From the IMG/VR virus record IMGVR_UViG_3300042433_000193: DNA of 64,000 nucleotides. One strand, 5' to 3'. The translations under genes were made by a program, and so were the position numbers. The first letter of the stretch is position 1. Each line of letters begins with the position of its first letter. The notes beneath the pieces were generated by a model. The model searched no databases. It was not told the origin of the DNA and saw nothing but the letters and a program-made list of their open reading frames with translations. This document shows, one piece after another, positions 63 to 62,958 of the stretch. Source of the stretch: an uncultured virus (IMG/VR IMGVR_UViG_3300042433_000193). Taxonomy: Duplodnaviria; Heunggongvirae; Uroviricota; Caudoviricetes.

Positions 63-126
63 TGTTCTTTCTGCTTATTTTATTTTTCATTTATTTTACC
101 TCATCATCTCTTAATCTGACAACGCC

Positions 127-226
127 ACTTAACAAGTCAAGCCGATTGTTACCACTACAGTTATCCCGATCGCCTTGGTAATCCCCTAGCTTGCAATCTA
201 CTTAACAAGTCAAGCCGATTGTTACC
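127..226 (-). CRISPR. Mini-array: two identical 27-bp repeats with a 46-bp spacer, directly after tnpB
   Basis: acttaacaagtcaagccgattgttacc at 127-153 and 200-226; the tnpB stop codon (222-224) lies inside the proximal repeat. Confidence 0.7.
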
Positions 227-1898
227 CAGTCTCCCAGAGTGTAAGCTGCGTATAGCCTGCGTTGACTGTTTGCGCGGGTTGCGAGTGGATCGACCTTTTC
301 CTTGTTTTTTTCTTGGGTGTCACTGGCTCGGAGGTCAAAACCAGTAAGGTTTCGAGGGTTTCTTCCCCAAGTAACAATCGGCTGGACTTGTCAAGTAATT
401 CCTCCTGCGCTGATTCCTTATCGAAATCCTTCAGAGGCTTAACTTCCCCGGTACAAGCCGGGTAGCTTCTTACGAAGTCTGCTTTCCCTAAGATGTTGAT
501 TGCGGCGGCCACATCTCTGGGTAAAGTACATCCACACTCTAAACATTTATGGGTGCGGGTTGATAAACTTTTTTTAACACGATTGCCACAGCGAGGACAA
601 TCCTGACTGGTGTAAGCTGGTTGAACTTTGATAAACTCTCGGTTGGGAGTTTTCATTTTCGTTTCAAGAAAACCGGTTAATTGTCCTAAACTAGCATCAG
701 CAAAGGATTTATTTAATCCCCCTTTGGCTTTCGCGTTATTGCGTTCGTAGCCTTTACCGTCTTCTCTTTTTTTCGGTTTAGGTCGTCGCATTAAATTCTT
801 TAAGTTGAGGTCTTCTACGGCTACAGCGCCATGATTTTTGACAATATCGGTACTTAGGGCATGATTAAATCCTTTGCGTTGTCTTGCTATTTTTTCGTGA
901 GTTTTAGCAACTTTAGCACGAGTTTTAGCGAGATTTTTGCCGTCTTTATTTTCCCCTGCTTTATACTGTCTAGCGGTTTTTCTTTGCAGTCTTGCTAGTC
1001 TTTTTTGCTGTTTTCTATAGTATTTGGGCGGGTCAATTTGTTGGCCGTCGCTGGTACTAATTATATATTCTAGTCCTACGTCAATACCGATTGCTTTATC
1101 GGAATCAGGTAGATCATCTACTTCAAATTCACCAAATAGACTTAGATAATATCCCGATGGGTATTTAATAATTGATACGGTAGAGGCTTTTCTGTCACCC
1201 CACCGAATGTCTAAAGTATTGTTGACAATCTTTAAATCGCCTAATGTTTTACCACAGCTACCTATAGATATTTTATCCCCTTTTCTAACAGCGCAATTGC
1301 TGATCTCAGAATAAAGAGATTTAATTTTATCTTCTTTTCTTTTAAATCTAGGAAGTTTTCTGTCTAAATTCTTTTTATCGAGTTTGGTGTAAGCTTTCCA
1401 GGAATCAGCAAGCTTTTTTAAAACCCCTTGGACAAAAGCCATAGGGATGTCCTTGCATAGCTCTGGACATTTTTCTTTTGTAATACAGCCACATAACCCA
1501 AAATAATTATCAGATTTTAACCGCCGTTGAATAGGAATATGAACAGGATAAGAGTGACCTGCTTTTTGTCTTTTTTCTCTAGCTATCTGTATTTTAACTT
1601 TTTGCTTGCCAGTTAAATATTTAGGGGTGTAAAGGGGATTAGGAAGGGATTTACCTTTTTCGTTTTTCAGGGAGTCAATAAATTGAGGTTTTTTAGCTAA
1701 ACGACGTTTAACCCGTTTAACTGGTTTTCCTGTTATTTTCTCAAGCTCGTCGTAATACTTATTAAGCTGATATTCCATCAGTAGCTCTAGTCCAAAATTC
1801 CAGACAGCTTTAAGCTCGTCCATCCAGCGATCAATATAGGCTCGCTGAGTGGCATTAAGGTTAAGTTTTATGTCCGCAATAGTTTTCTTGACTAGCAT
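222..1898 (-). CDS. tnpB: RNA-guided endonuclease TnpB (IS200/IS605 OrfB-type, Cas12f-like), enlarged to 558 aa
   Basis: N-terminal OrfB-type helix region; RuvC-I IGIDVG, RuvC-II AVEDL, YTSQDCPRCG...CLECG zinc finger, RuvC-III RDVAAAINI; no adjacent tnpA. Confidence 0.92.
   Translation of the reverse strand: MLVKKTIADIKLNLNATQRAYIDRWMDELKAVWNFGLELLMEYQLNKYYDELEKITGKPVKRVKRRLAKKPQFIDSLKNEKGKSLPNPLYTPKYLTGKQKVKIQIAREKRQKAGHSYPVHIPIQRRLKSDNYFGLCGCITKEKCPELCKDIPMAFVQGVLKKLADSWKAYTKLDKKNLDRKLPRFKRKEDKIKSLYSEISNCAVRKGDKISIGSCGKTLGDLKIVNNTLDIRWGDRKASTVSIIKYPSGYYLSLFGEFEVDDLPDSDKAIGIDVGLEYIISTSDGQQIDPPKYYRKQQKRLARLQRKTARQYKAGENKDGKNLAKTRAKVAKTHEKIARQRKGFNHALSTDIVKNHGAVAVEDLNLKNLMRRPKPKKREDGKGYERNNAKAKGGLNKSFADASLGQLTGFLETKMKTPNREFIKVQPAYTSQDCPRCGNRVKKSLSTRTHKCLECGCTLPRDVAAAINILGKADFVRSYPACTGEVKPLKDFDKESAQEELLDKSSRLLLGEETLETLLVLTSEPVTPKKKTRKRSIHSQPAQTVNAGYTQLTLWETG
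371..396 (-). ncRNA. Anti-repeat (tracr/omegaRNA scaffold segment) inside the tnpB 3' coding region
   Basis: gtaacaatcggctggacttgtcaagt matches the reverse complement of the array repeat at 24/26; on the minus-strand RNA one difference is a G-U wobble. Confidence 0.7.
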
Positions 1899-1934
1899 GG
1901 CTTTTATGGATCGACCTTCTTTTATTCTTATTTA

Positions 1935-1964
1935 AATCTACCATAAGCTTTATAGAAATGTCAA
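1935..1964 (-). promoter_or_regulatory. Sigma70-type promoter for tnpB
   Basis: Minus strand TTGACA-18nt-TAGATT; a similar copy (ttacttgacatttcta...) precedes the 1974-2342 ORF at about 2386-2420. Confidence 0.55.
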
Positions 1965-1973
1965 GTAAGAAGT

Positions 1974-2342
1974 CTAAAGATTTTTTGGGATACCAGTCCC
2001 TGCATCAGAACCTATAGCCCAACCCTTATAAAAGTTAAAGGCGGTAGTATCAATATAAAGAGAAAACCCTATAGCTTCCCAGCATTCTAATAGCCTTAGT
2101 ACATCAACAGTCTGAACCGTATAATTTGATCCTGTATTAGTAATAAGAAATTTTTCAAAAATTTCTGGGGCAACTAAAACAGAGCAATAGCTAGTATCGT
2201 TAAATTTACCAGATTTTTTGGCTAATTCAGAAGTAATTGCGATCAAAATCTCTTTTGTAAGTAATCTTTCTTGCGATATATTGCAACTATCTAAGTTAGT
2301 CCAAGCGGTAAATTTAACATAATTAGATCGGGGATTAAACAT
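1974..2342 (-). CDS. Hypothetical protein
   Basis: 122-aa ORF with its own TTGACA promoter. Confidence 0.55.
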   Translation of the reverse strand: MFNPRSNYVKFTAWTNLDSCNISQERLLTKEILIAITSELAKKSGKFNDTSYCSVLVAPEIFEKFLITNTGSNYTVQTVDVLRLLECWEAIGFSLYIDTTAFNFYKGWAIGSDAGTGIPKNL

Positions 2343-2409
2343 AACTTATAGTAGAAAAAGGTGCTAAACTATATTTGACTAACTTAAATTTACTACAAGC
2401 CTACTAGAA

Positions 2410-2550
2410 ATGTCAAGTAAAAATTATTATCCTCTTAACGTCCGTACATCAGAATCAGAAGAGAAAAAGCTAAAAAACTACTGTAAAGCCCAAAAGCGGT
2501 CAATAACCGAGGTAATCCGGGAATTGATTAGAAGTTTACCCGATAACTAA
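2410..2550 (+). CDS. Ribbon-helix-helix (CopG-like) DNA-binding protein, 46 aa
   Basis: Manual translation MSSKNYYPLNVRTSESEEKKLKNYCKAQKRSITEVIRELIRSLPDN; followed by hairpin and T-tract at 2584-2609. Confidence 0.65.
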   Translation: MSSKNYYPLNVRTSESEEKKLKNYCKAQKRSITEVIRELIRSLPDN

Positions 2551-3101: not shown

Positions 3102-3395
3102 ATGCTTATCACCCATATCTCGGTAGATTATAGCCAGAAAGTCAATCTTGGTAACTTTGAGTCTGCACACGTGAGTATAAATATTCATGGGAAACCAGAA
3201 GACGACGAAGATCCTGATGCTTGCTATGAATTTCTTTTAAATCAAGCACAGCGAGTAGTTATGTCAAAACTTCTGGAAGTAACAGAGGCTCATGATGTCA
3301 CTTGCCCAAGTGTGGTCAAGTATTTTGCTGGTAAAGAAACAGACGAGTTTCCTTCCTCTTATAGATTTAGCGACCCTAGCAACCTTCCTTTTTAG
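3102..3395 (+). CDS. Hypothetical phage protein
   Basis: 97-aa ORF, GAGGAG RBS, KVNLGNFES motif. Confidence 0.75.
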   Translation: MLITHISVDYSQKVNLGNFESAHVSINIHGKPEDDEDPDACYEFLLNQAQRVVMSKLLEVTEAHDVTCPSVVKYFAGKETDEFPSSYRFSDPSNLPF

Positions 3396-3406
3396 GAGTA
3401 AAAACA

Positions 3407-4414
3407 ATGCCTATAAAATCTTTGACAACAAGACAAGCCCGGTTCCTTAGACTGGGTATAATTCGCAAAGGGGGAGAAAAAAAAGAAAACCCTAAAAGAC
3501 CTGGCACTCTAATAAGCGGAGATGATTTAGAATATTTTCGCATTGATTCTGATATTCAAGGAATCAATGAAAAATTTACCGCTATTTACGGGAAAGAGCC
3601 TAAGCAATTAGATTGCTTATTACCTTTTCCTTATACAGACCAAGTATTTCCTTGTTGGATGGAACAGTGGAATGATAAAGATTTAAAAACCTCTGGGTTA
3701 ATGATTCGGTGCGACGAGGAAAAGCAACATATCTACCAACAAGCTGGCAAAATGATTGCCACTAATCCTATCCCGTGCAAACGACAACAAAATCCTGACG
3801 GAAGTTATTCAGGGTGTAAATGCAAGCAAGTTGGGCGATTGCAGATTGTTTTACCTAAATTAGGTGAACTAGGATACTTTGAAGTCGAAACCCATTCAAA
3901 GTGGGATATTATCGGACTAACAGAGCAACTACTAGCTATTGAAACATCGGCTGGTAGTTTGATTGGTATCCCTTTTCTATTAGAACGCGGGTCAAGAGAG
4001 CTATCTTATCCCTTACCAGACGGAAAAAGGGGACGAAAGACTTTTAGTCTTTTATCAATCCGTGTTCACCCTAGCAGAGCGTCTCAAGTTCTAGAAGTCA
4101 TTGAAACAAAAGCCTTTCAACAATTTACGGGAAATGTAGAACCTGCCAAAACTCTAACTCCTGCGTCAACGGGAAACGTAAAATTGTTCAACGCTTCGCA
4201 ATCACTGTCAGAGGATCGCAAGCAGGCTGGAATTACTTGGGCTGTAAATCAAGGATTACCTCAACCAGAAGCTTTGCAAATCGCCCAACAAGCAACCTCT
4301 GAAAAAGAATTGGCCGACCTCCTAAAAAAAGCTATAGACGCAAGGCTAAAGCCAGTAATAGAAGTTTGCAGTGAAAATATTGATCCTGGTGAACTTCTCA
4401 GTGAAGATTTTTAA
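3407..4414 (+). CDS. Phage recombination-related protein (Gp3/RDF-like family, tentative)
   Basis: LGIIRKGG...DLEYFR N-terminus, CDEE...PC...CKCKQVGRLQIVLP pattern; AGGAG RBS. Confidence 0.5.
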   Translation: MPIKSLTTRQARFLRLGIIRKGGEKKENPKRPGTLISGDDLEYFRIDSDIQGINEKFTAIYGKEPKQLDCLLPFPYTDQVFPCWMEQWNDKDLKTSGLMIRCDEEKQHIYQQAGKMIATNPIPCKRQQNPDGSYSGCKCKQVGRLQIVLPKLGELGYFEVETHSKWDIIGLTEQLLAIETSAGSLIGIPFLLERGSRELSYPLPDGKRGRKTFSLLSIRVHPSRASQVLEVIETKAFQQFTGNVEPAKTLTPASTGNVKLFNASQSLSEDRKQAGITWAVNQGLPQPEALQIAQQATSEKELADLLKKAIDARLKPVIEVCSENIDPGELLSEDF

Positions 4415-7811: not shown

Positions 7812-7961
7812 AGCTTAAAGGATTATTATAGACATTTAGAAAGTATTCCCCTTTACGGTCCGTACTTAAGTGACTATGGAATTAACCGAAAAGATAAAGA
7901 AGGATTTACTCCAGTTGGAACATATCAAGCAACAAATGATATGTTTCAATAAATCTCAAAT

Positions 7962-7992
7962 AAAAAACAGAGGGTTAACCCTCTGTTTTTTT
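7962..7992. terminator. Bidirectional intrinsic terminator
   Basis: aaaaaacagagggttaaccctctgttttttt palindrome between convergent genes. Confidence 0.8.
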
Positions 7993-7995
7993 CTG

Positions 7996-8601
7996 TTACG
8001 CTCCGATTAGTTTCTCCTGTAAATATTGGTAAACCTCTTTCTGTAAATCTTTTGGGGCAGAACACAGAAAAGCTTTCACATCTTCTAGATCGATCTCTTT
8101 AATCATCTTCTGTAACTCATCTAGCTTTGAGTAAAGAGACTCAACTTCTTTAATTACAAGCTTTGCTTTAACTTGAGGATCAGCTTCCTGAAAAAGTTCG
8201 GGAACTAAATTAGGATTTTTAACACAATCCTTTTTTTGATTGATTGTATCTTTTAGAAAATCCTGAATTGTTGGCCAGTCGCCATTAAGATAATTCACAA
8301 AAGAATCTGTATCAAGGCCAAATACAGCAGCTAGTAATCGCATATTCCCTAGATCAGGGCAACTAGCGATATTTTTTAGCTCCCAGTTTTGAACCGCTCC
8401 CCCAGAAAATTCTGTGCCAGGTAATCCCAGTCGCCGGCCTTCTTTTAGTATCCACTCAGTAAATTCGGCTTGGGTCATACCTAGCCCCATCCTTTTTGCC
8501 TTAATAGTGTCGGACATTTTGCTTATCCCTTTTTCTGTCAAGGCCGAGGACTTTACTCGTTTGCGGGGTGTCCCGTCGCTGTTAAATCGTGGTGTAGCCA
8601 T
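7996..8601 (-). CDS. XRE-family HTH repressor (CI-like)
   Basis: IKAKRMGLGMTQAEF...GGAVQNWE HTH; divergent from a small RHH gene. Confidence 0.75.
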   Translation of the reverse strand: MATPRFNSDGTPRKRVKSSALTEKGISKMSDTIKAKRMGLGMTQAEFTEWILKEGRRLGLPGTEFSGGAVQNWELKNIASCPDLGNMRLLAAVFGLDTDSFVNYLNGDWPTIQDFLKDTINQKKDCVKNPNLVPELFQEADPQVKAKLVIKEVESLYSKLDELQKMIKEIDLEDVKAFLCSAPKDLQKEVYQYLQEKLIGA

Positions 8602-8640
8602 AAAAGTGTATTTTGATAAGATACCCTTATCTTACACTAC

Positions 8641-8668
8641 CTTGCAAAAAACTTACAAAAAACTTACA
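8641..8668. promoter_or_regulatory. Tandem 11-bp operator-like repeats in the divergent switch region
   Basis: cttgcaaaaaa-cttacaaaaaa-cttaca. Confidence 0.55.
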
Positions 8669-8718
8669 GGCAATCTCGACTTTTATGATACAATATAGAA
8701 AATTCTGTAAATTAAGCC

Positions 8719-25561: not shown

Positions 25562-26924
25562 TCAAATTATTCACGGTGATTGTTTTGATGTTTTAAAAAA
25601 TATTCCTGATAGTTCTATTGATTTAATCCTAACCGATCCTCCTTATGGACTTTCGTTCATGGGAAAAAATTGGGATCATGGTGTACCTGGTGTACAGTTT
25701 TGGATTGAAGCTTTACGAGTCGCTAAACCAGGAGCGCACCTATTTGCTTTTGGTGGGACTCGTACTTTTCACCGATTGGCAGTAGCAATCGAGGACGCTG
25801 GTTGGGAAATCAGAGATACCATTATGTGGGTCTATGGGTCGGGGTTTCCGAAGTCGCTTGACGTGAGCAAGGCGATTGATAAGATGGCAGTAGTTGAATG
25901 TCCTGCGTGTAATGGTATTGGTAAAAACACTGAACTTGAGTCATGGGAAGAGTGGATTAAAAAAACTCAAGACTATGGTGGGACACGCAAAGAGTGGGAA
26001 CGATTGCAAGATTTATCTATAGTTGAATGTCCTGCGTGTAATGGTACAGGAAAAGTACGCGGAGCGAATCGGGAGGTTGTGGGCGTTGAAACTCGCTACA
26101 ACGAAGCTAGCGGTATTGTTTCTGCGGGCCGCGACGAACGGACGCTGATTGAACGAAAAATCACCGTCCCCGCAACTGAAGCCGCAAAGCAATGGCAAGG
26201 CTGGGGGACTGCTCTAAAACCAGCCTTTGAACCGATTACGGTGGCTCGTAAACCTCTCACTGGCACGGTAGCTGAAAATGTCCTACAGTGGGGAACTGGG
26301 GGGATTAATATCGATGGGTGTCGTGTGGAGTGTGAAGGTAAGCCAGTTTTCATCAATGGTGTTGAACGTGATAGAAACAGATCAAGTTACGACACTGGTG
26401 GCAGTAATCGAACGGGTAAAATAACTACACAAGGCCGCTGGCCAGCCAACCTGATCCACGACGGCAGCGAGGAGGTGGTGGGGTTGTTTCCGGAGACAAA
26501 AAGCGGAAAGATGAAAGAGGGACAGATACGAACCAGCAAGCCTCTCTTTGGAAGCAAGACAGACCATATCGCTGAAACATACGGTGACTCAGGCTCCGCC
26601 GCCCGCTTTTTCTATTGCGCTAAAGCTAGTAAATCCGAACGCGGTGAAGGTAATACTCATCCTACGGTGAAACCACTGGGATTAATGAAATATCTGATCA
26701 CATTAGGATTACCGCCGGGTGGGATAGTCCTCGACCCTTTTTGTGGTTCTGGCACTACTGCTTTAGCTTGCAAAGAATTAGGTAGAAATTATATCTGTAT
26801 CGAGAAAGAATTAGAATATTATCAGATAGCTTGTAACAGACTAGACCAACCTATAGAACCTATTCCAGATGAACCGATAGAAGAACCAGTAGATAATTCT
26901 TCATTACAGTTAAAACTGTTTTAA
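25554..26924 (+). CDS. DNA amino-methyltransferase (N4-C/N6-A, beta class)
   Basis: IIHGDC, LTDPPYG, HPTVKP, VLDPFCGSGTT. Confidence 0.92.
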   Translation: MINQIIHGDCFDVLKNIPDSSIDLILTDPPYGLSFMGKNWDHGVPGVQFWIEALRVAKPGAHLFAFGGTRTFHRLAVAIEDAGWEIRDTIMWVYGSGFPKSLDVSKAIDKMAVVECPACNGIGKNTELESWEEWIKKTQDYGGTRKEWERLQDLSIVECPACNGTGKVRGANREVVGVETRYNEASGIVSAGRDERTLIERKITVPATEAAKQWQGWGTALKPAFEPITVARKPLTGTVAENVLQWGTGGINIDGCRVECEGKPVFINGVERDRNRSSYDTGGSNRTGKITTQGRWPANLIHDGSEEVVGLFPETKSGKMKEGQIRTSKPLFGSKTDHIAETYGDSGSAARFFYCAKASKSERGEGNTHPTVKPLGLMKYLITLGLPPGGIVLDPFCGSGTTALACKELGRNYICIEKELEYYQIACNRLDQPIEPIPDEPIEEPVDNSSLQLKLF

Positions 26925-46882: not shown

Positions 46883-46955
46883 TGTGGGGTCTAGGAGTCG
46901 AACCTAGTGTTTTAGGCTTATGAGGCCTATGTGTAAGCCATTTCACTCACCCCGC
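46883..46955 (-). tRNA. tRNA with CAT anticodon (Met or lysidine-Ile), non-canonical
   Basis: GCGGGGT/ACCCCAC acceptor with a C-A mismatch; TAGGC-CTCATAA-GCCTA anticodon arm; CTAGG-TTCGACT-CCTAG T-arm; no encoded CCA. Confidence 0.75.
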
Positions 46956-46985
46956 TTTTATATTAGCGCATCAAAAAACAGAATG

Positions 46986-47654
46986 TCAAGTGTATTGTAC
47001 TGATAAGTTTACTGTTTTTTGTTCCCGACCTAAACCAGTCAAATAGTTAACTATTTGGTTGTTAAAGATTTGACTATTTCTAACTACAATACAGCCCGCG
47101 CTTCCAGGTGCATTAGCGTCTCGATGTAATCCAAGTTCTGATCGAGAAAACCCTGATCCTTTGTAAGGATCAGGCGTAATATGAAAAAACATCCCCTCAA
47201 CACCTCTTGTATCTAACCAATATCCCTTAGTATTGATTTGCCAATGATTTCCTTCTGGTATTTGTCCTTTGCCTACAATTTTTTCGGCACCTCGGTATTG
47301 ATACCCAATTGAGCCACTGGTAGCCACTACTTCAATTGCTTTATCATTTCCTCGATAAAATTGCAAAATTCCTTCAATCAACTTAGGAGATCGACTTACA
47401 GGAAACTTAAAAACGGCTGTCACGGGTAAGGTATTAGGTAAATCAGATAAATCCCAATGCGGCTTGAATATCCACCAATCACCTGCGCTGTAGCTAAGTT
47501 TTACTTGAATGTGTAATCCATATTCAGATAAAACTTTATCTACAGGATAATTTCGATTTTTTTCTACAAAAATTAACTGATCTTCTTTCAAATCAGACAC
47601 TTGCTCTGGAGTTTTTTTCAGATAAGTGTTAAATATTGCTGTAATTTGCTTCAT
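46986..47654 (-). CDS. L,D-transpeptidase-like (Tlde1/DUF2778-like) cell-wall enzyme
   Basis: G.IPEG, RSELGLH.D.N.PGSAGCI His/Cys motif; N-terminal domain resembles that of the endolysin. Confidence 0.6.
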   Translation of the reverse strand: MKQITAIFNTYLKKTPEQVSDLKEDQLIFVEKNRNYPVDKVLSEYGLHIQVKLSYSAGDWWIFKPHWDLSDLPNTLPVTAVFKFPVSRSPKLIEGILQFYRGNDKAIEVVATSGSIGYQYRGAEKIVGKGQIPEGNHWQINTKGYWLDTRGVEGMFFHITPDPYKGSGFSRSELGLHRDANAPGSAGCIVVRNSQIFNNQIVNYLTGLGREQKTVNLSVQYT

Positions 47655-47689
47655 TTGTCCTAGCCTACATTTTCCTTAATTCTAGCTTT

Positions 47690-47893
47690 TCAATCAATCC
47701 AATAGACAATTTCGTTAGGCTGTATCTCGTACCTATCACAGATTGTTTCTAAGACAGTGATAGATGGTAAGTGATCGGCATCTCTTGCCAATTTATAACC
47801 CGTATTGGGTGCGATACCCGTATCCTTGATAAATCGGTAAACCGTGATCCCTCTATTTTTCGTGAACTGTTTGACCCTGTTTTTTAGTACCAT
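47690..47893 (-). CDS. Cro/C1-type HTH regulator
   Basis: RGITVYRFIKDTGIAPNTGYKL...LPS..VLE.IC. Confidence 0.8.
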   Translation of the reverse strand: MVLKNRVKQFTKNRGITVYRFIKDTGIAPNTGYKLARDADHLPSITVLETICDRYEIQPNEIVYWID

Positions 47894-48492: not shown

Positions 48493-48556
48493 TATACCAG
48501 TTATCAGTTGTCAGTCATCAGTTGTCAGCTAACAATTATTTAGGAGTCAAAAAAAA

Positions 48557-50016: not shown

Positions 50017-50211
50017 ATGAACCTGTACCTAGTTAAAGATTCAGTTACATCATTTGGTCTTCTTATTGCAGCAGAATCAGAAACAGAGGCTACCTGGCAT
50101 TGGTGCAATTATTTTAATAGCAATAATGACAATCCAATCGAAATAGAAGAAATTAACATTAATACTTCTGGTATCGTTTGGAAATGTGGGTGGACTACTA
50201 TTAACCCCTAA
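50017..50211 (+). CDS. Hypothetical phage protein
   Basis: MNLYLV...LLIAAESETEA motif. Confidence 0.55.
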   Translation: MNLYLVKDSVTSFGLLIAAESETEATWHWCNYFNSNNDNPIEIEEININTSGIVWKCGWTTINP

Positions 50212-53092
50212 AACCGCTCCTAAACCGATTAACAGGAGCAGAAGTAATAATCGTGCTAATAACCTTTTCATGTCCCTGAAACTCATTTTCAAGGGAATAA
50301 AATGCTCCCGATAGGCTATCTACAATGTCATTGGTCGGAGGTGTTTTCTTACTACCATCAAAACCCTGACAGGCATTTAAAAACCGAGTGTTCCACGTCC
50401 CATCTCTTAAGATAAAGATTTGTCCCCGACTAGCTGCCGTGGCTACTGGTAAAGCTCGTGTTAGCTTATCCCCTTGAGGTGCTATCGCTCTAATATCATG
50501 ACTCGGATGATTTTCCCTAATTACATTAGTAATGGTATTCTCAACAAATTTACCGCTCGATCCCCCTTCCTGCTCCCATCTTACAGCCACGGTTCTACCA
50601 TCCAATTCAGCAGTATTTTTAAGCATTAATTCCACTTCCCCGACCTTTTTCTGCTCACAGATATTATCGGCAATCACATAAGTAAATTCCTTAATCTCAG
50701 TTGAATCTGACAGTGTATTTTTAACTCTTTGGTATTTATAAACAAGAGTCCCACTGGTGTAACAGTGATAGTTTTCAGCATTTTCTTTAGCAGTTGCCGC
50801 TAAATCCCAGAACCTCACTTTACCTATTAACTTCCAATCGTCGGGTACTTTATCGAGAATCTCAAACCAAGTCCGATCAAATACCGTACCGGCTTCGTAT
50901 TTAACTTTCCAGTTACCTCTGAGAAGTCTTTCCCGCTCAATAGGATGTAAAGCGTAAAGGTTAGCCAAATAGGTAGGGTTAACCTTAATTAAAGCTGGAT
51001 TATCAAAAATCGTAGCTGGAATAAAAGTAAAACTCTTAATCAGTTTATCTGGTGTAATATTAGTATCTATATTTGATAAAAACTTTTCTCTTTTATCTTT
51101 AGGAATAAGGTCAAAAAGTTCATCTTTAAGACTAAATTTATCGATTAGTTCTTCTTTAGTATCAGCCCAGTGGATTATGTTTTCTCGTCTAACAAAATAT
51201 TTAACTATTCCCCCTCTTTCTTCAATAGCATACCCAGTCTTAGGGTCGATCCACCAAGAGATAAAACTAGCTACCCAAGAGTCAGCGTCAGGGTTACAGG
51301 TTGCTCTAACTGCGGGTTTAATGCCTGATACCGAACGGTTTCTAGAGAGAAGATAGAAAAATTGTTCTTCTGTAAAATGGGTTAATTCATCAAAACCTAT
51401 CCTTGCAATTTGTCCCCCTTGATAAACATAGACAGTTTTTTCGTATTGTAAATGTCTAAAAGATATTTTCGATCCAAATGGAAATCGCCACCCTGGAGGC
51501 TTTTCAATAAAATTACCTTTCACTGCTTGATAGATTTTTTGGCTTTCATCTATTAGTCCACCCGCTTGAGTAAATTCAGGATACGTCCGACGAAATATAA
51601 CAGCCCGATAGTCAGGATTGCTAATAAATTCTTGCCGGGCAAAATCAATTAATAGCCCAGCACTATTATGCGTAACTATATAATCATCTGTTAAATAAAG
51701 ATGATTTGGATTGCTAACAGTAATACAACGAGCGTAATCAATTTCAGTTGGTTCAATAGAAACAATTCTTTTACCCGACCAACTTGATCCCCCATTAAAT
51801 TGTCCAAGCATTTTCGCTCGTTCAACTTTACGCGGCAAACTAAAAAGTAATTCAAGGTGATTTCCCTCAACAGCCACGACGTAAGCTGTACGACCATCTA
51901 AATGCTCCCCCTTGTATCTATATTTTGGTTGTCTTTTCGTAATCTTAGCCATATAACCCAAAGAACGAACCAAAGAAGCTACCTGAATAGCCAAATCTTT
52001 ACTGGTTGTGCAATAGGAAACTTCTCTTTTTTTGTCTCCAACAGTTCCATCTGTATCAAAAAGACCTTGAGCAAACGCATAACGAAAATCAAGAGATGCC
52101 GATAAATAGCCGTCGGGAAATACTTTTTCCCACGCTCTTTTTCCTTTATATTCATTGTTGCTTATCCAAGACTTAACCCATTGAACTTTTGTCGCGTTGA
52201 CGGATAAAACTTCTAAACGGTTATCTTTTATTGGTGTTCGTGTTTTAACGGTAGCTTCTTTCCCTAAAATATCAACGAGTTTATCAGCAATAAATCTATC
52301 AGAAGTTGTTACGATAATTGAATCACTACAATAAGAACCATCGCCTATTAAACAACCGTAAAAATAGGCTCTGCCAGTATCAGACCTGTTAAGTGCCGTA
52401 AATTGCAATGGCGCGTTAACTGGAACAATAAACCGTCTTCCTTTGCTAATCTCAGTAATCAACCAATTAGTATCCCTAACCCTTGCTTTTGTAATGTAAT
52501 TAGTATTCCATCCTCTAGGTGTCAGATTCTCCTCAATTCGATTAATCCCGTTACTAGACTTCCTGCGGCTATTACGGCGAGATTCCCAAAAAGACCATAA
52601 ATGATCGCCACAGCATTCTGTACTTGTACCGTCTTCAAAAGAAACCCGATAAAATTGCTTGAATCCCTGTTCGTGAATTTGGATGATTTCTTGATACTGA
52701 CCATCAGGATTCATAATCTTATCCCCGACTTTAAGATCAGAGAAGTCGATCCATTGACCGCTCCATCCCAAGACCTTTGAATCTTTCATTTGTGATTCAT
52801 TAAAACTACTATTATATGATAATAGTCTTTTTCCTAAAAGCGCATCCGCCATAGAAAGCATTTTATCTCGAATCGCTTTTCCTGTCTTGGATGCACGCCC
52901 TGCTTTTCCACTTCCTGCGCCTCCGCCATAGAAGATTACATCAGCGTCAATTTCCCCAAATAAAGCTTGTTTTCCCTCTTGTAATTGAGGAAAAACAATT
53001 TCTTCTTTGGTGTTAACAAGTCGATATTTTTCGGTCGCTGTTTTTATCTTTGAGAGATTTTTTAGTGATAATTTACTCGCTTTCATCGTCAT
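50201..53092 (-). CDS. terL: Terminase large subunit containing an intein
   Basis: YGGGAGSGK|S Walker A, FRRTYPE, FDELTHF, ATCNPD, RFWDLAAT, DIVDSLSGA nuclease motifs. Confidence 0.92.
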   Translation of the reverse strand: MTMKASKLSLKNLSKIKTATEKYRLVNTKEEIVFPQLQEGKQALFGEIDADVIFYGGGAGSGKAGRASKTGKAIRDKMLSMADALLGKRLLSYNSSFNESQMKDSKVLGWSGQWIDFSDLKVGDKIMNPDGQYQEIIQIHEQGFKQFYRVSFEDGTSTECCGDHLWSFWESRRNSRRKSSNGINRIEENLTPRGWNTNYITKARVRDTNWLITEISKGRRFIVPVNAPLQFTALNRSDTGRAYFYGCLIGDGSYCSDSIIVTTSDRFIADKLVDILGKEATVKTRTPIKDNRLEVLSVNATKVQWVKSWISNNEYKGKRAWEKVFPDGYLSASLDFRYAFAQGLFDTDGTVGDKKREVSYCTTSKDLAIQVASLVRSLGYMAKITKRQPKYRYKGEHLDGRTAYVVAVEGNHLELLFSLPRKVERAKMLGQFNGGSSWSGKRIVSIEPTEIDYARCITVSNPNHLYLTDDYIVTHNSAGLLIDFARQEFISNPDYRAVIFRRTYPEFTQAGGLIDESQKIYQAVKGNFIEKPPGWRFPFGSKISFRHLQYEKTVYVYQGGQIARIGFDELTHFTEEQFFYLLSRNRSVSGIKPAVRATCNPDADSWVASFISWWIDPKTGYAIEERGGIVKYFVRRENIIHWADTKEELIDKFSLKDELFDLIPKDKREKFLSNIDTNITPDKLIKSFTFIPATIFDNPALIKVNPTYLANLYALHPIERERLLRGNWKVKYEAGTVFDRTWFEILDKVPDDWKLIGKVRFWDLAATAKENAENYHCYTSGTLVYKYQRVKNTLSDSTEIKEFTYVIADNICEQKKVGEVELMLKNTAELDGRTVAVRWEQEGGSSGKFVENTITNVIRENHPSHDIRAIAPQGDKLTRALPVATAASRGQIFILRDGTWNTRFLNACQGFDGSKKTPPTNDIVDSLSGAFYSLENEFQGHEKVISTIITSAPVNRFRSGFRG
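51665..52903 (-). mobile_element. Intein (413 aa) with LAGLIDADG homing endonuclease, class 3-like
   Basis: Inserted in the P-loop GK|S; starts Ala, ends VTHN|S; DHLW, ARCITV; YGCLIGDG and QGLFDTDG motifs. Confidence 0.9.
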
Positions 53093-53837
53093 CGCTTATC
53101 CTAGTGGGAACCATTACATCATCATCAAATTCTGCACTATCACGAATAATCGAGGTCAGTCCGTCATCGAGTTTCTCTATGCCAGAATGTCCTATAAGTT
53201 TTCCGTCAGGGTCAATAACAGCTAATCCGTGCTTTTGAACAATATTAATTGCGTACTCGATGGTGTCAAAACCTAAAACTTTTTCAAAGGTATCAGTCAA
53301 CGTTTTAGCCATAGTCACTGCGTCTCTATGATTCCAATTTCCGTTAGGTTCAATTGTTATGGCAATCGGTCGGCCCGATTCATCTACAGAATCTATCCGA
53401 CGGCGAGAAATCGGATAATTAGTCATCTGTTCAATCTTTTCGAGGTTTTTTAGAGTAATCTTTAGAGTCTTCTCTCGGATTTCTCGTAAAATGCTATCAG
53501 TGTAAGCTCGCTGCTCTTGAATCTTTAAAAGCCAATAGGCTTTCGCCCGCTCTTCCCATCGATAGTTTTTATGCGCTAACTGCCAGTCATCGGGGACAGT
53601 TTTAGCTCGTTTAAATTTAGTCTTCTCTATCTGTTCCCCAGAAGCTTCCCCGCAGTTACCGTAAGCTCGGTTTAAAGTGCGATAGCCTGATGGAATAGGA
53701 AGGTAAAAAATCTGAAATCTTTCAAACCAGTCAGGGGTTTCTAGTTCTTGCTGTTCCCAGATAGGATATTTGGTAAACTCGATTACCTCTTCATGAATAG
53801 AGTATGTACGCTTTCTGCCTCGATTAGTGACAACCAT
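53073..53837 (-). CDS. Terminase small subunit (putative)
   Basis: IWEQQELET...F..F..., W....RWEERAKAY motif; overlaps the terL start. Confidence 0.65.
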   Translation of the reverse strand: MVVTNRGRKRTYSIHEEVIEFTKYPIWEQQELETPDWFERFQIFYLPIPSGYRTLNRAYGNCGEASGEQIEKTKFKRAKTVPDDWQLAHKNYRWEERAKAYWLLKIQEQRAYTDSILREIREKTLKITLKNLEKIEQMTNYPISRRRIDSVDESGRPIAITIEPNGNWNHRDAVTMAKTLTDTFEKVLGFDTIEYAINIVQKHGLAVIDPDGKLIGHSGIEKLDDGLTSIIRDSAEFDDDVMVPTRISDDDESE

Positions 53838-53878: not shown

Positions 53879-54583
53879 ATGACAGATAAATTGGAAATTG
53901 AGTATCGACGGCTTTGCGACCTAAAACAACTAAAGGGTAATTCCAAAAAACACGCCACTGAAAACACAATAGCTTCAATATTGGATATGGGATTTAAAGA
54001 CCCAATTGGCTACGATCCGAGCTTAAACGGCGGAAAAGGGGGGATTACTGAGGGTCATGATCGGTGTGCCGCACTATTAGCAATTAAAAAGCGCAAAATA
54101 GATCGACCTAGAGGTATAGATATTGACAACGATGGGGAGTGGATGGTTCCTATTTTAGTAGGAGTTCACGCTAAAAATGAGGCTCAAGCTATAAAATACT
54201 CGATTATTCACAACCATTCTACGATTCACGGGGCGGGGCTTGACCTTGCTACGGAATTAAAGCTTTTTGATACTGACTTACTAATTAGCCAAGCTGAATA
54301 CCTTGATGAAGAGGGGGAGAATTTAGGAGTAATCGGCGATTTAAATTCAATCCTAGAAGCTTTAAATACTTCAGATAATTTAGATAATTCTGATAATTTT
54401 GAATCGAATATAACAGATAATTTTTCGGGAAAAAACAAAGAAATTGACATCGAGGGTATGGATGGGCAAATGATAATTAAATTAAGTTATACAGAAAATG
54501 AATACTGGCAAGTAAAAGAACAATTAAGTAAAATAGCATCGACACCCGAACAAGCAGTATGGAAGCTTTTAGGTAATGACTAA
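53879..54583 (+). CDS. ParB/Srx-like domain protein associated with a methylase
   Basis: NSKKH...IASILDMGFKDPI, ITEGHDR; probable start MTDKLE. Confidence 0.65.
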   Translation: MTDKLEIEYRRLCDLKQLKGNSKKHATENTIASILDMGFKDPIGYDPSLNGGKGGITEGHDRCAALLAIKKRKIDRPRGIDIDNDGEWMVPILVGVHAKNEAQAIKYSIIHNHSTIHGAGLDLATELKLFDTDLLISQAEYLDEEGENLGVIGDLNSILEALNTSDNLDNSDNFESNITDNFSGKNKEIDIEGMDGQMIIKLSYTENEYWQVKEQLSKIASTPEQAVWKLLGND

Positions 54584-55622
54584 ACATAAATTTGCATATA
54601 AGTGGAATTTGTCAGATGGATACCCAGCACCCGGAATTGAAAAACATGGGTTAAAAGTATTTGGTACTTTTATCTGTGGCGGTGGTTCGACTATGGGTTA
54701 CAAGTTAGCAGGTTTTGACCATTTAGGAGGTGTTGAAATAGACTCGCAGGTAGCTGATGTATATAAAGTTAACCACAATCCTAAATATTTATTTATTGAA
54801 GATATAAGAGATTTTGCTGATCGTACAAACTTTCCTAATGAACTTTATAACCTAGATATTTTAGACGGCTCACCTCCCTGCTCTTCATTTAGCATGGCAG
54901 GAAATAGAGAAAAAGACTGGGGGAAAGAAAAAGTATTTAGGGAAGGTCAGGCTAAACAGCGACTTGATGACCTTTTCTTTGATTACATACGATTAGCAAA
55001 AAAACTACAGCCAAAGGTCGTTATCGCTGAAAATGTTAAAGGAATTATTCAAGGTAATGCCAAAGCGTATGTAAAGCGAATAAAAGATGAATTTGAAAAA
55101 GCAGGGTATAAAGTACAGTTATTTCTTTTGAATGCTGCGAGCATGGGAGTACCTCAAAAACGTGAGCGAGTATTTTTTATTTGCCAAAGGAATGATTTAA
55201 ACTTTAAAAATCTAGAGTTAAGTTTTGATGAAAAATCAATTATTTATAGTGAATTTAAGTCAAAAAAATTAGGAAAAGAATTAACCAATGAAACAAAAGC
55301 TGTATGGGATAAAAGAATAAAAACAGATCAAGATTTAGCGAGTATTCACGAAAGAATTGGAAATAAAAGAAAAAGATTTCAAGCTAAATTTATTCACGAT
55401 AACCAGATTTCTCCTACTACAGTAGCAAGTGGAGATTCTGTCCCAATAAGATTTGATCATCCAAATAGAATAACAATGGATGAAGTTAAAATGATTGGTA
55501 GCTATCCGCTTGATTACAACTTTAAAAATATTAAACCAAATTATTTAATAGGAATGAGTGTGCCTCCTGTAATGACCGCACAGATAGCGCATCAGATTTA
55601 TTTACAGTGGTTTACAGAATAA
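54576..55622 (+). CDS. DNA (cytosine-5)-methyltransferase
   Basis: FICGGG, DGSPPCSSFS, ENVKG, GVPQKRERVF, GMSVPP. Confidence 0.92.
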   Translation: MTKHKFAYKWNLSDGYPAPGIEKHGLKVFGTFICGGGSTMGYKLAGFDHLGGVEIDSQVADVYKVNHNPKYLFIEDIRDFADRTNFPNELYNLDILDGSPPCSSFSMAGNREKDWGKEKVFREGQAKQRLDDLFFDYIRLAKKLQPKVVIAENVKGIIQGNAKAYVKRIKDEFEKAGYKVQLFLLNAASMGVPQKRERVFFICQRNDLNFKNLELSFDEKSIIYSEFKSKKLGKELTNETKAVWDKRIKTDQDLASIHERIGNKRKRFQAKFIHDNQISPTTVASGDSVPIRFDHPNRITMDEVKMIGSYPLDYNFKNIKPNYLIGMSVPPVMTAQIAHQIYLQWFTE

Positions 55623-55642
55623 TCAGTACAAAAGTATCCACA

Positions 55643-55664
55643 GTGACACTTGATAAACTGTCAC
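55643..55664. promoter_or_regulatory. GTGNCA-N10-TGNCAC palindromic site
   Basis: Copies at 55643-55664, 55970-55991, 56508-56529 and 2584-2605. Confidence 0.55.
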
Positions 55665-55706
55665 ACTTTGCCAACTATCTGAAAATTATCATGATATATT
55701 TAAAAT

Positions 55707-55894
55707 ATAAGCACTAAACCAAGTGCATCCATTAATTAGAGCCTCCATAAGCTACTGGGCGGATCAGTAACCGATTTGAAATAGTAGTCGGCTGGTGAGA
55801 CTGGTTAATGAGTCGTTCTAAGCTTGCTGGTGTAATTCCAGTAACCGATTTGAAATAGTAGTCGGCTGACGCACGCACTTGGTCTAGTGCTTAT
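55707..55894 (+). ncRNA. Candidate structured ncRNA: 20-bp closing stem enclosing two identical 30-nt hairpins
   Basis: 55707-55726 pairs with 55875-55894 (19/20); cagtaaccgatttgaaatagtagtcggctg at 55765-55794 and 55839-55868. Confidence 0.6.
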
Positions 55895-56059
55895 TACTTT
55901 AAATAGATTCTTAGTTATTCTAGTGACAGTAAATCACTGGAATAACTGCTTTAGATGTCCCCAAGCATTGTGACAGTTTATCAAGTGCCACACTTCGCCA
56001 ACACTTATCAAGAGGATTAATCTACATTAGAAATGTAAGCAAAACACACACCGCAGATC

Positions 56060-56521
56060 ATAAATAACCTACAATCTAAACTGGCTCGACTAAACGCTCA
56101 ACTAGCGATTACTAGAGGACGGCAAAACCAGCGTAAACTAATTGAAAAAATCTTAAAAGTAGAAGCCGTTATCGAAGCAATCGGGAAAAATACTATCGTA
56201 AGCTTTAAAAGATTGCCTAAAACTCGCGCTCTTATTTTAGAAACTCCTCGCCGCGCTTAGAGAGCATGGGTAGCGAAAATCTCACCCGAAAAAGATATTA
56301 AGCACGGTGGATTCATCAAGAAGTTTATCGAGCCTGTAAGTCGAAAATTTGAAGGTAAAAAAGGCGAAACATCTGCAACTTTTGAGATTCCTATCGATTT
56401 AAACGTTATTTATCAAGATAGCGATGGGGACTACTGGGTATTTGAAAATGTCAAAGGGAAAATTCAAAGCATCTCCTATCAAGAAGTATGCTATCGTTTT
56501 TCTCAGCGTGTCAGTGCCTAA
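56060..56521 (+). pseudogene. 153-codon gene with ATA start and in-frame TAG; N-terminus paralogous to 59109-60347
   Basis: (I)NNLQSKLARLNAQLAITRG...KILKVEAVIE versus MNTLQTKLARLESQLKITKG...EILKVESAIE; TAG at 56258-56260. Confidence 0.7.
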
Positions 56522-57779: not shown

Positions 57780-58484
57780 ATGGCTGATCTAATTTTACAA
57801 CGTTTTGATCACGACGGCATCGAGCTAATTATCGACACTCAGACCGGTGAAAGCTTTGCCTCAATCAAAGGATATGCTCGTATGTCTGGGAAAAGCCACA
57901 ACGCTATCACTATGCGATTAAACCGGCTATCTAAAGAAGATAGCAAGGGGGTAACTTCTGAATCTCCAAATCACCCTCAAATTCAAACAGGGAGCGGGTT
58001 ACAAGGGGGTAACACAATGGGGTTAGGATTAGGATTGCTAAAACAGGCTCAAATTCAAACAGAGGGCGGGTTGCAAGGGGTTTATCTAATCCCAGAAGAC
58101 CTAATCTGTAAGTGGTTGCCAAAGGATAATCCTGAGTTAGCCTCTCAAGTGCTTAAGCTAGGAGTCCGATTATTCCTTCACACATTAGCTGGTTTTCGCG
58201 TCAAGAGCGAGGCAATTAAAGAGGTAAGACAACTTGAGAGCCAAATCGTCAAACTAAGCGAAGAGAAGCAAATACTAGAGGAGTTGATCGAAACTCAAAA
58301 GATTATGATCGCTGACTTTAGCAGTAAAAACTCGATGCTTGACTATAAGCGGCTAGTGATCGAAGAATTGCACGCTGAAAAAGAGCGCGATATAGCTAAA
58401 TTTAACTTACTCGAAACCGAACGAGAAAAAGCACGGGGATGGCGAGGCGGTCGAATGCTTACAAGAAACGATAAAAAACGGTAA
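57780..58484 (+). CDS. Antirepressor-like DNA-binding protein with coiled-coil tail (tentative)
   Basis: Paralog of 45809-46263; followed by terminator hairpin 58503-58530. Confidence 0.55.
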   Translation: MADLILQRFDHDGIELIIDTQTGESFASIKGYARMSGKSHNAITMRLNRLSKEDSKGVTSESPNHPQIQTGSGLQGGNTMGLGLGLLKQAQIQTEGGLQGVYLIPEDLICKWLPKDNPELASQVLKLGVRLFLHTLAGFRVKSEAIKEVRQLESQIVKLSEEKQILEELIETQKIMIADFSSKNSMLDYKRLVIEELHAEKERDIAKFNLLETEREKARGWRGGRMLTRNDKKR

Positions 58485-58553: not shown

Positions 58554-58984
58554 ATTGTAGATAAGGTGATCGACAATAAAAAGCATTGATATATATAGGT
58601 TCTAGACTTTGTTAGTATTGTTACTCTATTTCCCCGTGTCAGAATTTTTTATCCTTTTCTTATTGTCCAGTTTGTTTGTCTCTCTTTATTTTTTTCTCTC
58701 TGTATAGAGTGTCGACAAGATAAACAAACCTCGAAATCTATACTCTGCAAGGATTTCGATTGTTAATAACCTTATCTACAATCTATCTACAGACTAACAG
58801 ACTTATTGCTGACTTTGGTTTTTTTTTCTATTGCTAAACTTAGTTATCTCCCGCAGTCTTTTTATTGTCCAGCCTGGTATATTTTCTTATCTTTTCTTTT
58901 TCCCTATAAACCATTGACAACGTTAACAAAGCCTACAACCTTTGCGGAGTAAAGGTTTTGATTGTCGATCACTTTATTAACAAT
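58554..58984. repeat. ~70-bp dispersed element cluster (locus 4; a degenerate copy also at about 57556-57627)
   Basis: Forward 58554-58623, reverse 58712-58782 and 58915-58984. Confidence 0.75.
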
Positions 58985-59015
58985 CTATTTACAATGGTAA
59001 CGAGTAAATATACTT

Positions 59016-59100
59016 AGTACATCTGCTCAGAAATAATTCTCCCATATACTTGACTTTATTGGGAGAATGATCTAATATAGAAAAGTAAACAAAACACACA
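59016..59100 (+). promoter_or_regulatory. Repeated promoter/operator module (copy 1 of 4)
   Basis: tagtaca..gctcagaaa..TTCTCCCA....TTGAC.ttatTGGGAGAA...aaacacac; also at about 60407, 61309 and 62506. Confidence 0.8.
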
Positions 59101-60347: not shown

Positions 60348-60502
60348 GTACACTTATCGCTTAGTCAGCAATAAAAAACACTTAGCTTAGTTAAGCGTTT
60401 TTTATTAGTACATCTGCTCAGAAAAGATTCTCCCAGATAGTTGACATTATTGGGAGAACGATCCACAATAGAAAGTAACCAAAACACGGAAAAGTAACAA
60501 TC

Positions 60503-60948: not shown

Positions 60949-61329
60949 ATGATCTTAATCTTGTCTCTTAAATTAGAAGATTTTGAGGTTTTAAAATCTT
61001 CTATTCAGAAAATCGACAACATTGACACTAACTTGAGTCTTGTTAAGCTACAAGATTACTCTTTATCGGGCATAGGTTTGACAAGAGTAGCTTTAATCTG
61101 CGATAAACCTCCTCAGATAATTGCAAAAAAAGGAATCAATACAGAAACAGAAGCAGTTATCCCTGAAACTAAATACTGCGTTGCCTGCTTAGTTTTGGGT
61201 AAATTTACGGCACTTAATGCCCGAAACAATTCTGGGTATTGTTTAGAACATCGAGAACTTGATCCTAAGCGGAAACAGGATCAACACCAACGTTACAAAC
61301 AAAGACGTAGTACAAATGCTCAGAAATAA
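60949..61329 (+). CDS. Hypothetical protein with Zn-finger-like C-terminus
   Basis: YCVAC...SGYCLEHR. Confidence 0.6.
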   Translation: MILILSLKLEDFEVLKSSIQKIDNIDTNLSLVKLQDYSLSGIGLTRVALICDKPPQIIAKKGINTETEAVIPETKYCVACLVLGKFTALNARNNSGYCLEHRELDPKRKQDQHQRYKQRRSTNAQK

Positions 61330-61406
61330 TTCTCCCACCTACTTGACTTTATTGGGAGAATTTTGTAAGATAAGACTAGGCAAACAAACACACGAGGACA
61401 AAAAAA

Positions 61407-62483: not shown

Positions 62484-62958
62484 TTTCTAGTTATTAGTTA
62501 TCAGTAGTACAAACGTTCAAAAATAGTTTTCCCACACACTTGACTTTATTGGGAGAATGATCCACAATAGAAAGTAACCAAAACACACGAGGTACTAAGT
62601 CATGTCTAACGATAAACAACCAATCGAAACAACACAAATTCCTAAAATTAAAAAAGCTCAAATTTTCTGCAAAGAGATTGAGTTATTTGCTCAATCTTTA
62701 AATCAGAAAGCACAAACAGTGCTGGACAAGTATCCGACGCTGTAATCAGTTGTCAGTTATCAGTTGTCATCTGTCAAAAAGTGTGTGATTGCTTTATTGG
62801 CTTGATTTTCCGAGATTTTTGGCAGTTCTGCGATCAGTGTAACCATGAGTAAATCTACGAACTACAAAAAGATAATAAAAAAGTTTGACAAACTACTTGA
62901 CACGAAAACATATCCCTGTTATATTGGGTATATACCAAAACACACAAAGGAGTTCAAC

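Follow-up and report, generated by a model that had tools for sequence, protein, structure and literature searches.

We describe here a small non-coding element between positions 55643 and 56035 of a 64,000-nucleotide stretch of viral DNA (IMG/VR record IMGVR_UViG_3300042433_000193, hereafter the window), which comes from a tailed phage, a siphophage, of the bloom-forming cyanobacterium Microcystis. With a probability that we put at about 0.8, the locus is a discrete structured RNA gene of ~190 nt, and the element is an optional, single-copy cassette between two promoter units. The function we favor, at a probability of about 0.35–0.4, is that of an RNA which would act in trans as a multivalent protein binder. 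This reading is suggested by repeated modules of varying number, by nearly invariant loops carried on changing stems, by the accessory character of the unit and by a transcription unit of apparently early type. A promoter-flanked optional cassette with a phage small RNA is a known kind of arrangement; what is new is that this RNA belongs to no described family.

Sequence anatomy and fold of the element

The preliminary description of this locus, made from the sequence alone, had reported a closing stem around two identical 30-nt copies and a pair of flanking sites, and all of these are in place. The terminal arms (55707-55726 and 55875-55894) are 20 nt each, 95% complementary (19/20), and enclose 148 nt; the 30-nt copies (55765-55794 and 55839-55868) are 100% identical and lie 74 nt apart, start to start; the flanking sites (55643-55665 and 55969-55991) are 96% complementary over 23 nt. 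Allowing up to 3 mismatches, the 30-mer occurs in the window only at these two places, where shuffled sequences predict 0.00 occurrences. The + strand folds at -66.1 kcal/mol (z = -4.65), and none of 200 shuffles folds as well. The parts of the RNA are as follows, in window coordinates:

55707..55726, + strand: 5' arm of the terminal helix P1 (helix 1; 19 pairs, 96% of cells paired)
55730..55810, + strand: domain 1 (consensus fold, helices 2-5), closed by the P2 stem (55730-55739 with 55801-55810)
55743-55752 with 55791-55799, + strand: three-way junction of domain 1
55753-55758 with 55764-55769, + strand: small hairpin a1 of domain 1
55772-55776 with 55786-55790, + strand: hairpin b1 of domain 1, loop UGAAAUAGU
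55812..55874, + strand: domain 2, stem 55812-55817 with 55868-55874 (helices 6-8)
55824-55830 with 55838-55844, + strand: small hairpin a2 of domain 2
55845-55850 with 55860-55865, + strand: hairpin b2 of domain 2, with the same 9-nt loop as b1
55875..55894, + strand: 3' arm of P1, which alone can fold as a 5-bp hairpin followed by TTATTACTTT, terminator-like
55895..55947, + strand: U-rich tail and 14-bp hairpin (55913-55926 with 55934-55947), likely the 3' end region

A consensus fold across 13 distinct two-module variants comprises 67 pairs, including a 19-bp P1, a 10-bp P2 that closes domain 1 and a 6-bp stem that closes domain 2; 98.3% of cells are paired, versus 23–43% when the partners are slid. 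Each domain is a three-way junction with a small hairpin (CUGG.../...CCAG) and a 6-bp CCGAYU/AGUCGG hairpin that displays the loop UGAAAUAGU, and the two domains have in common the motif UAAGCU, the small hairpin and the 30-nt copy. The hairpin drawn in the preliminary description survives in its inner part, the 6-bp CCGAUU/AGUCGG stem, and fails in its outer part, a CAG/CUG pairing: both copies read CUA in the most divergent relative (L031), and in the consensus fold CAG pairs leftward within a second small hairpin.

Covariation among homologues, which had been proposed as a check, lends the fold modest support, including three compensatory pairs in one hairpin. Double-sided pair changes number 4 versus 0.5 in shuffles (0/500 reach 4), and three of them fall in hairpin b2 (helix 8) of the L031/L077 variant, where the stem reads CUAUCU/AGAUAG and the loop is unchanged. 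Many one-sided switches from G-U to A-U or G-C occur in the helices. Some eight of the pairs are G-U when read as + strand RNA but would become A-C on the opposite strand, which favors an RNA of the + strand over one of the - strand or over DNA. The loops of the b hairpins show a single substitution among the 26 loops of the 13 variants, while their stems vary.

The cassette had been called free of open reading frames. This is not strictly so, since a - strand frame of 48 codons exists at 55732-55878; the open stretch on that strand, 52 codons long, is interrupted by stops in 3 of the 13 variants, and no + strand frame of at least 25 codons occurs in any of them. With no conserved frame on either strand, we rejected a small protein as the product. 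A scan with Rfam 15 finds no family at the element, in agreement with the earlier remark that no RNA family was recognized, and a permissive scan of 55500-56150 gave four matches, all with E of at least 0.85 and far below gathering. ARAGORN finds no tRNA or transfer-messenger RNA at the element.

Promoter units, cassette borders and transcription

Each 22-bp flanking site is itself palindromic (GTGACA-N10-TGnCAC), so that the pair can equally be read as a direct repeat, 33 nt long and 82% identical (GTGACA..TG.CACACTTYGCCAAC); similarity between the promoter units continues to about 70 nt. In the window the palindrome pattern gives 11 strand-matches (6 places) versus 0.42 expected, an over-representation of ~25-fold. 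Previously taken for brackets that close an RNA cassette, the sites are instead two copies of a promoter/operator unit, between which the cassette is present or absent:

55643..55664, no strand assigned: operator-like palindrome 1 (GTGACA-N10-TGTCAC), upstream part of promoter unit 1
55676..55706, + strand: putative core promoter of the RNA, -10 TATATT at 55695-55700, start near 55707
55970..56035, + strand: promoter unit 2, with palindrome 55970-55991, CACTTCGCCAAC, a predicted -10 TACATT at 56023-56028 and the leader TAAGCAAAACAC
55676..56002, + strand: optional cassette of 327 bp, defined against empty-site relatives, its register being arbitrary within the shared repeat

Promoter unit 1 runs on as a direct repeat to 55675 (CACTTTGCCAAC). 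In an alignment that also contains unit 2 and the single units of relatives, its TATATT falls opposite TACATT/TATATT and is followed by AAAT(A/G)TAAGCA. Since unit 1 stays aligned through TATATT and TAAGCAC, transcription of the RNA would begin at about 55707, just ahead of the conserved TAAGCA leader and at the base with which the terminal helix opens. The genes downstream are served by promoter unit 2, which is also the cassette's right-hand border. The layout of these units resembles that of other intergenic promoter units of the window and of the early region of phage Mic1. In Mic1, a repeated palindrome-plus-promoter motif (GTGCCAGTTYATAAAGTGTCAC...) is described for the interval 67,047 to 69,344 in the genome report (PMC7156551), and in the Mic1 sequence itself we found a 22-bp palindrome of this kind, followed downstream by a -10 and a TAAGCAAAA leader. 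The genes around this interval, gp69-gp73, are immediate-early, with an expression peak 0.5 h after infection, according to the transcriptome study (PMC11237433). Since Mic1 genes near such units peak early, the promoter of the RNA is likely of an early type as well.

Other repeated promoter units were observed in both phages. Two more families precede successive rightward genes of the window (59008-59096, 60399-60487, 61301-61389 and 62498-62586; also 62876 and 63319), one of them with an inverted repeat, TTCTCCCA...TGGGAGAA, around a TTGAC box, and each gene behind these units looks like a promoter-led cassette of its own. The immediate-early region of Mic1 (65.9-71.8 kb; L113 15900-21800) is dense in repeats that are 60–99% identical, with up to 11 copies of a 200-nt unit. 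Its gp69-gp70 gap spans about 2 kb with no annotated gene and may hold unannotated small genes or RNAs.

The 21-nt core of the hairpin occurs in 24 IMG/VR contigs and a looser pattern in 25; in metagenomes the looser pattern finds 7 phage-like contigs and 2 CRISPR arrays. We built a covariance model, R1, from the 13 distinct two-module versions and searched 65 loci around homologues of the 234-amino-acid downstream gene, of which 19 carry the element. Of 20 close relatives whose upstream flank covers at least 3 kb, 16 carry it and four do not (L118, L126, L131 and L137). In three of the latter (L126, L131 and L137) a single promoter unit combines the left side of unit 1 with the right side of unit 2, so that the loci differ by precisely the insertion or deletion of the 327 bp that lie between the repeats. 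Whole near-complete records tell the same story, with one copy in three of five (G120–G122) and none in the other two (G123 and G124, 92%- and 100%-complete). These observations are consistent with gain and loss of the cassette by recombination between the flanking promoter-unit copies. In one record (G002) a 283-nt module corresponding to window 55644-55926 is 98% identical and lies behind four - strand genes instead of the methylase gene; the sequence immediately behind it corresponds to the window from 57256 on, the neighbourhood thus being mosaic. In Mic1, the whole genome gives no match to R1 at E up to 10. The likeness between the two phages lies in the promoter unit; Mic1 differs in having no RNA element, and the window phage is not close to it at the DNA level.

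The cassette also varies internally. Three-module variants were found in 4 of 25 viral contigs and in one metagenome contig (L015, L018, L020, L023 and L076); the third module is a tandem duplication of a 90-nt domain (domain 1 with 55721-55729) that keeps P2 intact, and the fold of the three-module variant stays closed (z = -4.95). Some relatives delete 55923-55969 (joint 55922 to 55970), which removes the 14-bp hairpin. In L026 and L031/L077, a strong 14–16-bp hairpin with a U-run (UUUU), a canonical terminator, directly follows the 3' arm. We rejected a multi-copy miniature transposon, the element being present in a single copy per genome, and also a miniature element derived from IS200/IS605 (PATE), given one copy per genome and the unrelated repeat beside the TnpB gene of the window. 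A retron was likewise rejected, no reverse-transcriptase domain being found among the 68 window open reading frames scanned against Pfam; terminal inverted repeats (P1) are present.

This distribution bears on whether the element works as DNA, as a recombination, replication or packaging signal, or is a neutral by-product of promoter-unit duplication, which we consider quite unlikely. The element does occupy a divergent junction, ~1.8 kb away from the terminase operon, its arms are inverted repeats that would form hairpins on both strands, the - strand has an equally good folding energy, and its divergence from L031 (about 10%) is not below that of neighbouring genes. However, near-complete, evidently viable relatives do without it, which rules it out as an essential origin or pac site. 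Moreover, the G-U pairs, together with wobble-preserving substitutions, fit only an RNA of the + strand, a promoter and terminators are oriented around the element, and the element is over-represented relative to its flanks in contigs from RNA libraries.

The expression data are assembled contigs of public metatranscriptome runs, four runs from three studies, and the element is present in contigs of all four. Over a 2.7-kb stretch around the element, three of the runs gave:

X16: element depth about 2.8; nothing else of the 2.7-kb stretch assembled
X15: bin sum of the element 39.9; at most 7.3 downstream
X18: element 9.1; rest 4.4

Uncovered parts of this stretch, the methylase gene included, were not taken as evidence. 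The junction of the three-module form is contained in three of the runs. Some contigs end near 55716-55731 and 55866-55871, but these are the places of the duplication junction and of the 30-nt repeat, and the ends cannot be taken for those of the RNA. We regard the RNA-library contigs as supportive of transcription of the element, not as proof of it. For a stand-alone small RNA there is a promoter predicted from the alignment, a terminator that is clear in L026 and L031, and sequence in four of four assemblies, which carry neither strand nor ends.

The element could instead be a cis-acting leader that decides whether transcription from promoter 1 enters the downstream genes. It would do so either as a conditional terminator, long-range P1 competing with the local terminator-like hairpin of the 3' arm, as in a riboswitch or in an attenuator controlled by a protein, or as a put-type RNA that makes RNA polymerase resist terminators. 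Such a role, which we hold to be unlikely, would explain why the 3' arm has two options, pairing with the 5' arm or forming the 5-bp hairpin ahead of a T-rich run (a terminator-like site is found at 55875-55890), and it would suit two similar junction domains reminiscent of tandem aptamers, the place of the element at the head of a rightward gene cluster, and RNA-library contigs (X15 and X17) that bridge element and downstream gene, although bridging contigs are no proof of a single transcript. However, the downstream genes keep a complete promoter unit of their own, which stands between the element and the next gene and on which cassette-free relatives rely alone. In addition, a strong, unconditional terminator follows the RNA in L026 and L031/L077, and no riboswitch or leader family of Rfam matches.

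The put RNAs of HK022 are cis-acting, about 70 nt long and not known to have a closing helix; their two conserved hairpins follow an early promoter immediately and precede a terminator. The element resembles them in its two conserved hairpins behind a probable early-type promoter with a terminator beyond; it differs in its closing helix, its length of ~190 nt and the promoter that the next genes have of their own.

Possible actions of the RNA

If the RNA is expressed as a separate transcript, its loops or linkers might pair with host or phage mRNAs, as in a base-pairing regulatory small RNA. The stand-alone layout of promoter, RNA and terminator and the exposed, almost invariant loops would fit this role, which we nevertheless regard as very unlikely. 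The exact complement of the 13-nt loop region is absent from 17 Microcystis genomes; one-mismatch sites number 6–10 per genome, fewer than in the reversed control (15–75); and in the window exact complements lie only on the element's own - strand. BLAST of the element in five Microcystis genomes gave only a 21-nt match at E about 0.8–0.9.

Another way to act on the host would be to mimic one of its repeat RNAs, as a CRISPR-like mini-array, as an anti-CRISPR RNA made of a solitary repeat (Racr), or by copying a type III antitoxin repeat and so disarming a nuclease of the host. Identical hairpin units in a phage non-coding cassette with its own promoter invite this comparison, as does the number of units, which varies among relatives; pseudo-ToxI expansion (PMC3475682) and the Racrs (PMC10651486) offer parallels. 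We judge such mimicry highly improbable. The 21-nt hairpin, with up to 3 mismatches, has no match in the 17 Microcystis genomes, and the whole-RNA covariance model finds nothing in them either, its positive controls having worked on phage relatives. The Microcystis CRISPR repeat that targets this phage group (GTTTCAATCCC...TTGGAAC) is unrelated to the hairpin, and no Microcystis repeat resembling CCGAUUUGAAAUAGUAGUCGG was found in the 17 genomes. The units, moreover, are not contiguous tandem repeats.

The preliminary description had considered that the 44-nt segment between the two copies might be a variable spacer and the locus a second mini-array akin to one at the TnpB gene. Neither suggestion held: all 13 variants conserve the segment, few substitutions being seen, it has no other match in the window, and the TnpB-side repeat, an exact 27 nt at 127-153 and 200-226 (spacing 73) at the 3' end of the TnpB gene, is unrelated in sequence and 53 kb away. 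Three-module forms arise by duplication of the 90-nt structural domain and not by repeat-spacer addition. We therefore rejected a CRISPR-like array, the 44-nt segment being constant and no similar repeat occurring in the 17 Microcystis genomes. A ToxI-like type III antitoxin was rejected as well, on the grounds that TRF finds no array, that the copies are 44 nt apart and that there is no host look-alike, host ToxN genes not having been searched. Beside the TnpB gene, a 45-nt repeat at 1927 and 2379 may, together with the 27-nt repeat, mark a duplicated guide-RNA end (window 1-2450).

ToxI-type RNAs consist of contiguous tandem repeats of about 36 nt. The present RNA differs in its period of 74 or 90 nt, in having structured domains as units and in the lack of a host counterpart among the genomes searched. 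It shares with the pseudo-ToxI of phage PhiTE, a type III antitoxin mimic that serves as a decoy and changes its repeat number, the nature of a phage non-coding repeat RNA with variable repeat number (PMC3475682). The Racrs, according to their description (PMC10651486), are small phage non-coding RNAs made of solitary repeat units that bind host proteins. The likeness is that of a small phage non-coding hairpin RNA in its own cassette, and the difference is that Racrs are defined there by mimicry of CRISPR repeats, whereas we found no similarity to Microcystis repeats.

The preliminary description had suggested a multivalent protein-binding or sponge RNA. We favor a trans-acting multivalent protein binder, for which the following mechanism can be proposed. 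Rightward transcription would come from an operator-controlled promoter of the type that drives the Mic1 immediate-early region, with a start near 55707 and an end past 55894, within the U-rich tail. The 20 nt at each extremity would pair as the terminal helix and so protect both RNA ends. The helix would enclose two similar three-way-junction domains, three in some relatives, each displaying the same hairpin with the nearly invariant 9-nt loop. In trans, the RNA could then be a stable platform that holds a single kind of partner in several copies, most likely a protein of the host or of the phage, and could act as a decoy or sequestering molecule in host take-over or counter-defence, with a valency tunable by domain duplication. 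A more specific version, which we regard as doubtful, is that the RNA is a counter-defence or take-over factor, an end-closed, nuclease-resistant scaffold that soaks up a Microcystis RNA-binding protein (e.g. one of its many toxin or immunity nucleases) with its identical junction-hairpin modules and whose valency, two or three modules, is tuned by phage populations. If this were true, having or lacking the cassette would contribute to the range of Microcystis strains that a phage can infect during blooms.

Several results weigh against the existence of such an RNA or against its proposed role. The 13 variants are 96% identical on average, which leaves covariation thin; three of the four double changes come from the single L031/L077 lineage, the outer P1 5' arm is altered without compensation in L030/L035, and L031 breaks two pairs at the base of P2. 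The folding energy of the - strand is about as good as that of the + strand (z = -5.70) and also beats its shuffles. A generic sigma-70 scan is not above chance, with 2 promoters found and 3.3 expected. The RNA-library contigs reveal neither the strand nor the 5' and 3' ends of a transcript, are no reliable measure of its level, and could stem from carried-over DNA; since the duplication junction is present in three of the four runs, contig ends are uninformative on the start of the RNA. The X15 and X17 contigs join the element to the downstream gene, in a variant that lacks 55923-55969; this could be read-through, and the RNA would then perhaps not be discrete. As to a partner, no host look-alike emerged by BLAST, pattern or model, loop-complementary sites are not enriched in the 17 host genomes or the window, and no gene is constantly adjacent to the cassette across relatives. 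A gene-content contrast based on 300-nt window tiles, four element-bearing versus two element-lacking near-complete records, picked out tiles that track the element (~3301-4350, 7951-8700, 12001, 22501, 46951-47700, 60751 and 61801). The two lacking records look like one lineage, so the comparison amounts to one contrast, names no partner and is uninformative in this respect.

Phage 'morons' are comparable optional units in general. Among the closest known arrangements is that of the promoter-early stem-loop (PeSL) elements, which two reports describe as mobile regulatory cassettes of T4-type phages (PMC2839356, PMC4122927). As in PeSL, an accessory unit is bounded by repeated promoter motifs and is exactly present or absent among close relatives. 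The cargo here is a structured RNA and not a protein gene, and the motif is a palindromic operator with a promoter, in a Microcystis siphophage, in place of a T4 early promoter with a stem-loop.

The non-coding RNAs of cyanophages are almost unexplored. Our full-text search of the literature returned no paper that treats non-coding RNAs of Microcystis phages, and a term search of the Mic1 transcriptome paper found no mention of non-coding or antisense RNA. The element sits in what appears to be the early take-over region, and occurs in bloom metatranscriptome assemblies; co-occurring phages differ in whether they have it and in how many modules it contains. Should the RNA bind a host factor, it would offer a way to study the strain specificity between phage and Microcystis during harmful blooms, and a case in which a host is manipulated by an RNA of adjustable valency. 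Natural variants with and without the cassette, and with two or three modules, provide a ready-made genetic experiment.

Phage, host and genomic setting

CRISPR spacers tie the phage to its host. One of the metagenome contigs matched by the hairpin pattern is a CRISPR array, not a phage, with a 34-nt spacer identical to the hairpin-2 region of the L031/L077 variant. The 37-nt repeat of this array occurs at 18 loci in the genome collection, 17 of them titled Microcystis and the remaining one a small contig of a Crocinitomicaceae metagenome-assembled genome. That 4.9-kb contig is a Microcystis-type CRISPR array with spacers against the window phage and looks like a binning error. Among 354 spacers from Microcystis-type arrays, five are 100% identical to the window from end to end. 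Many more match at 88–97%, the phage group being a frequent CRISPR target. These sites and the main genes of the window are:

26823-26856, 53208-53240, 53989-54023, 58251-58285 and 58731-58767: protospacers, 100% full-length identity to Microcystis spacers
50201-53092, - strand: large terminase with LAGLIDADG intein
54576-55622: C5 cytosine methylase, just upstream of the element
222-1898, - strand: TnpB gene, 558 amino acids, OrfB_IS605 and Cas12f-like TNB
46883-46955: tRNA-Met, the only Rfam gathering match in the window

A ParB-like gene also lies close upstream of the element, and further genes of the window encode a ribonucleotide reductase, a helicase and baseplate proteins. No record in the phage collection, Mic1 included, is close to the window phage at the DNA level: blastn of the element found no match there, megablast of 24 kb gave only a 300-bp match to Microcystis phages of MaMV type, and tblastn of a neighbouring 412-amino-acid protein gave no match. 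According to its genome report (PMC7156551), Mic1 has in common with the window an intein-bearing terminase (two inteins are reported), ATCAGTT repeats and the palindrome-plus-promoter repeat. Runs of the heptamer ATCAGTT/CAGTTAT were observed in the window at 48498-48539 and 62742-62777, and the same 7-nt repeat is reported from Mic1 and from Microcystis genomes (PMC7156551). A contig (C205) of a genome from a genus other than Microcystis (G001) carries phage-like DNA, probably misbinned with that genome. Against 101 genomes of that genus the element gave short matches only, the best per-genome E of 8.5e-4 being not significant over 101.

Downstream of the element, a 66-codon frame (window 56039-56260, + strand, start position 56060) is homologous to the N-terminus of the 412-amino-acid open reading frame at 59109. 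It begins with ATA, the paralogue and the relatives L030, L034 and L035 have ATG, and RNA-library contigs of three runs read G at 56062; in the window phage, this small gene would either have lost its start codon or use ATA. Further on, a 62-nt direct repeat (74% identical, 72 nt apart) at 57947-58080 lies inside the open reading frame 57780-58484, the 234-amino-acid gene, and is probably an internal protein repeat. This gene has paralogues, 49–60% identical, elsewhere in the same phage genomes (L146, L160, L161, L166 and L172).

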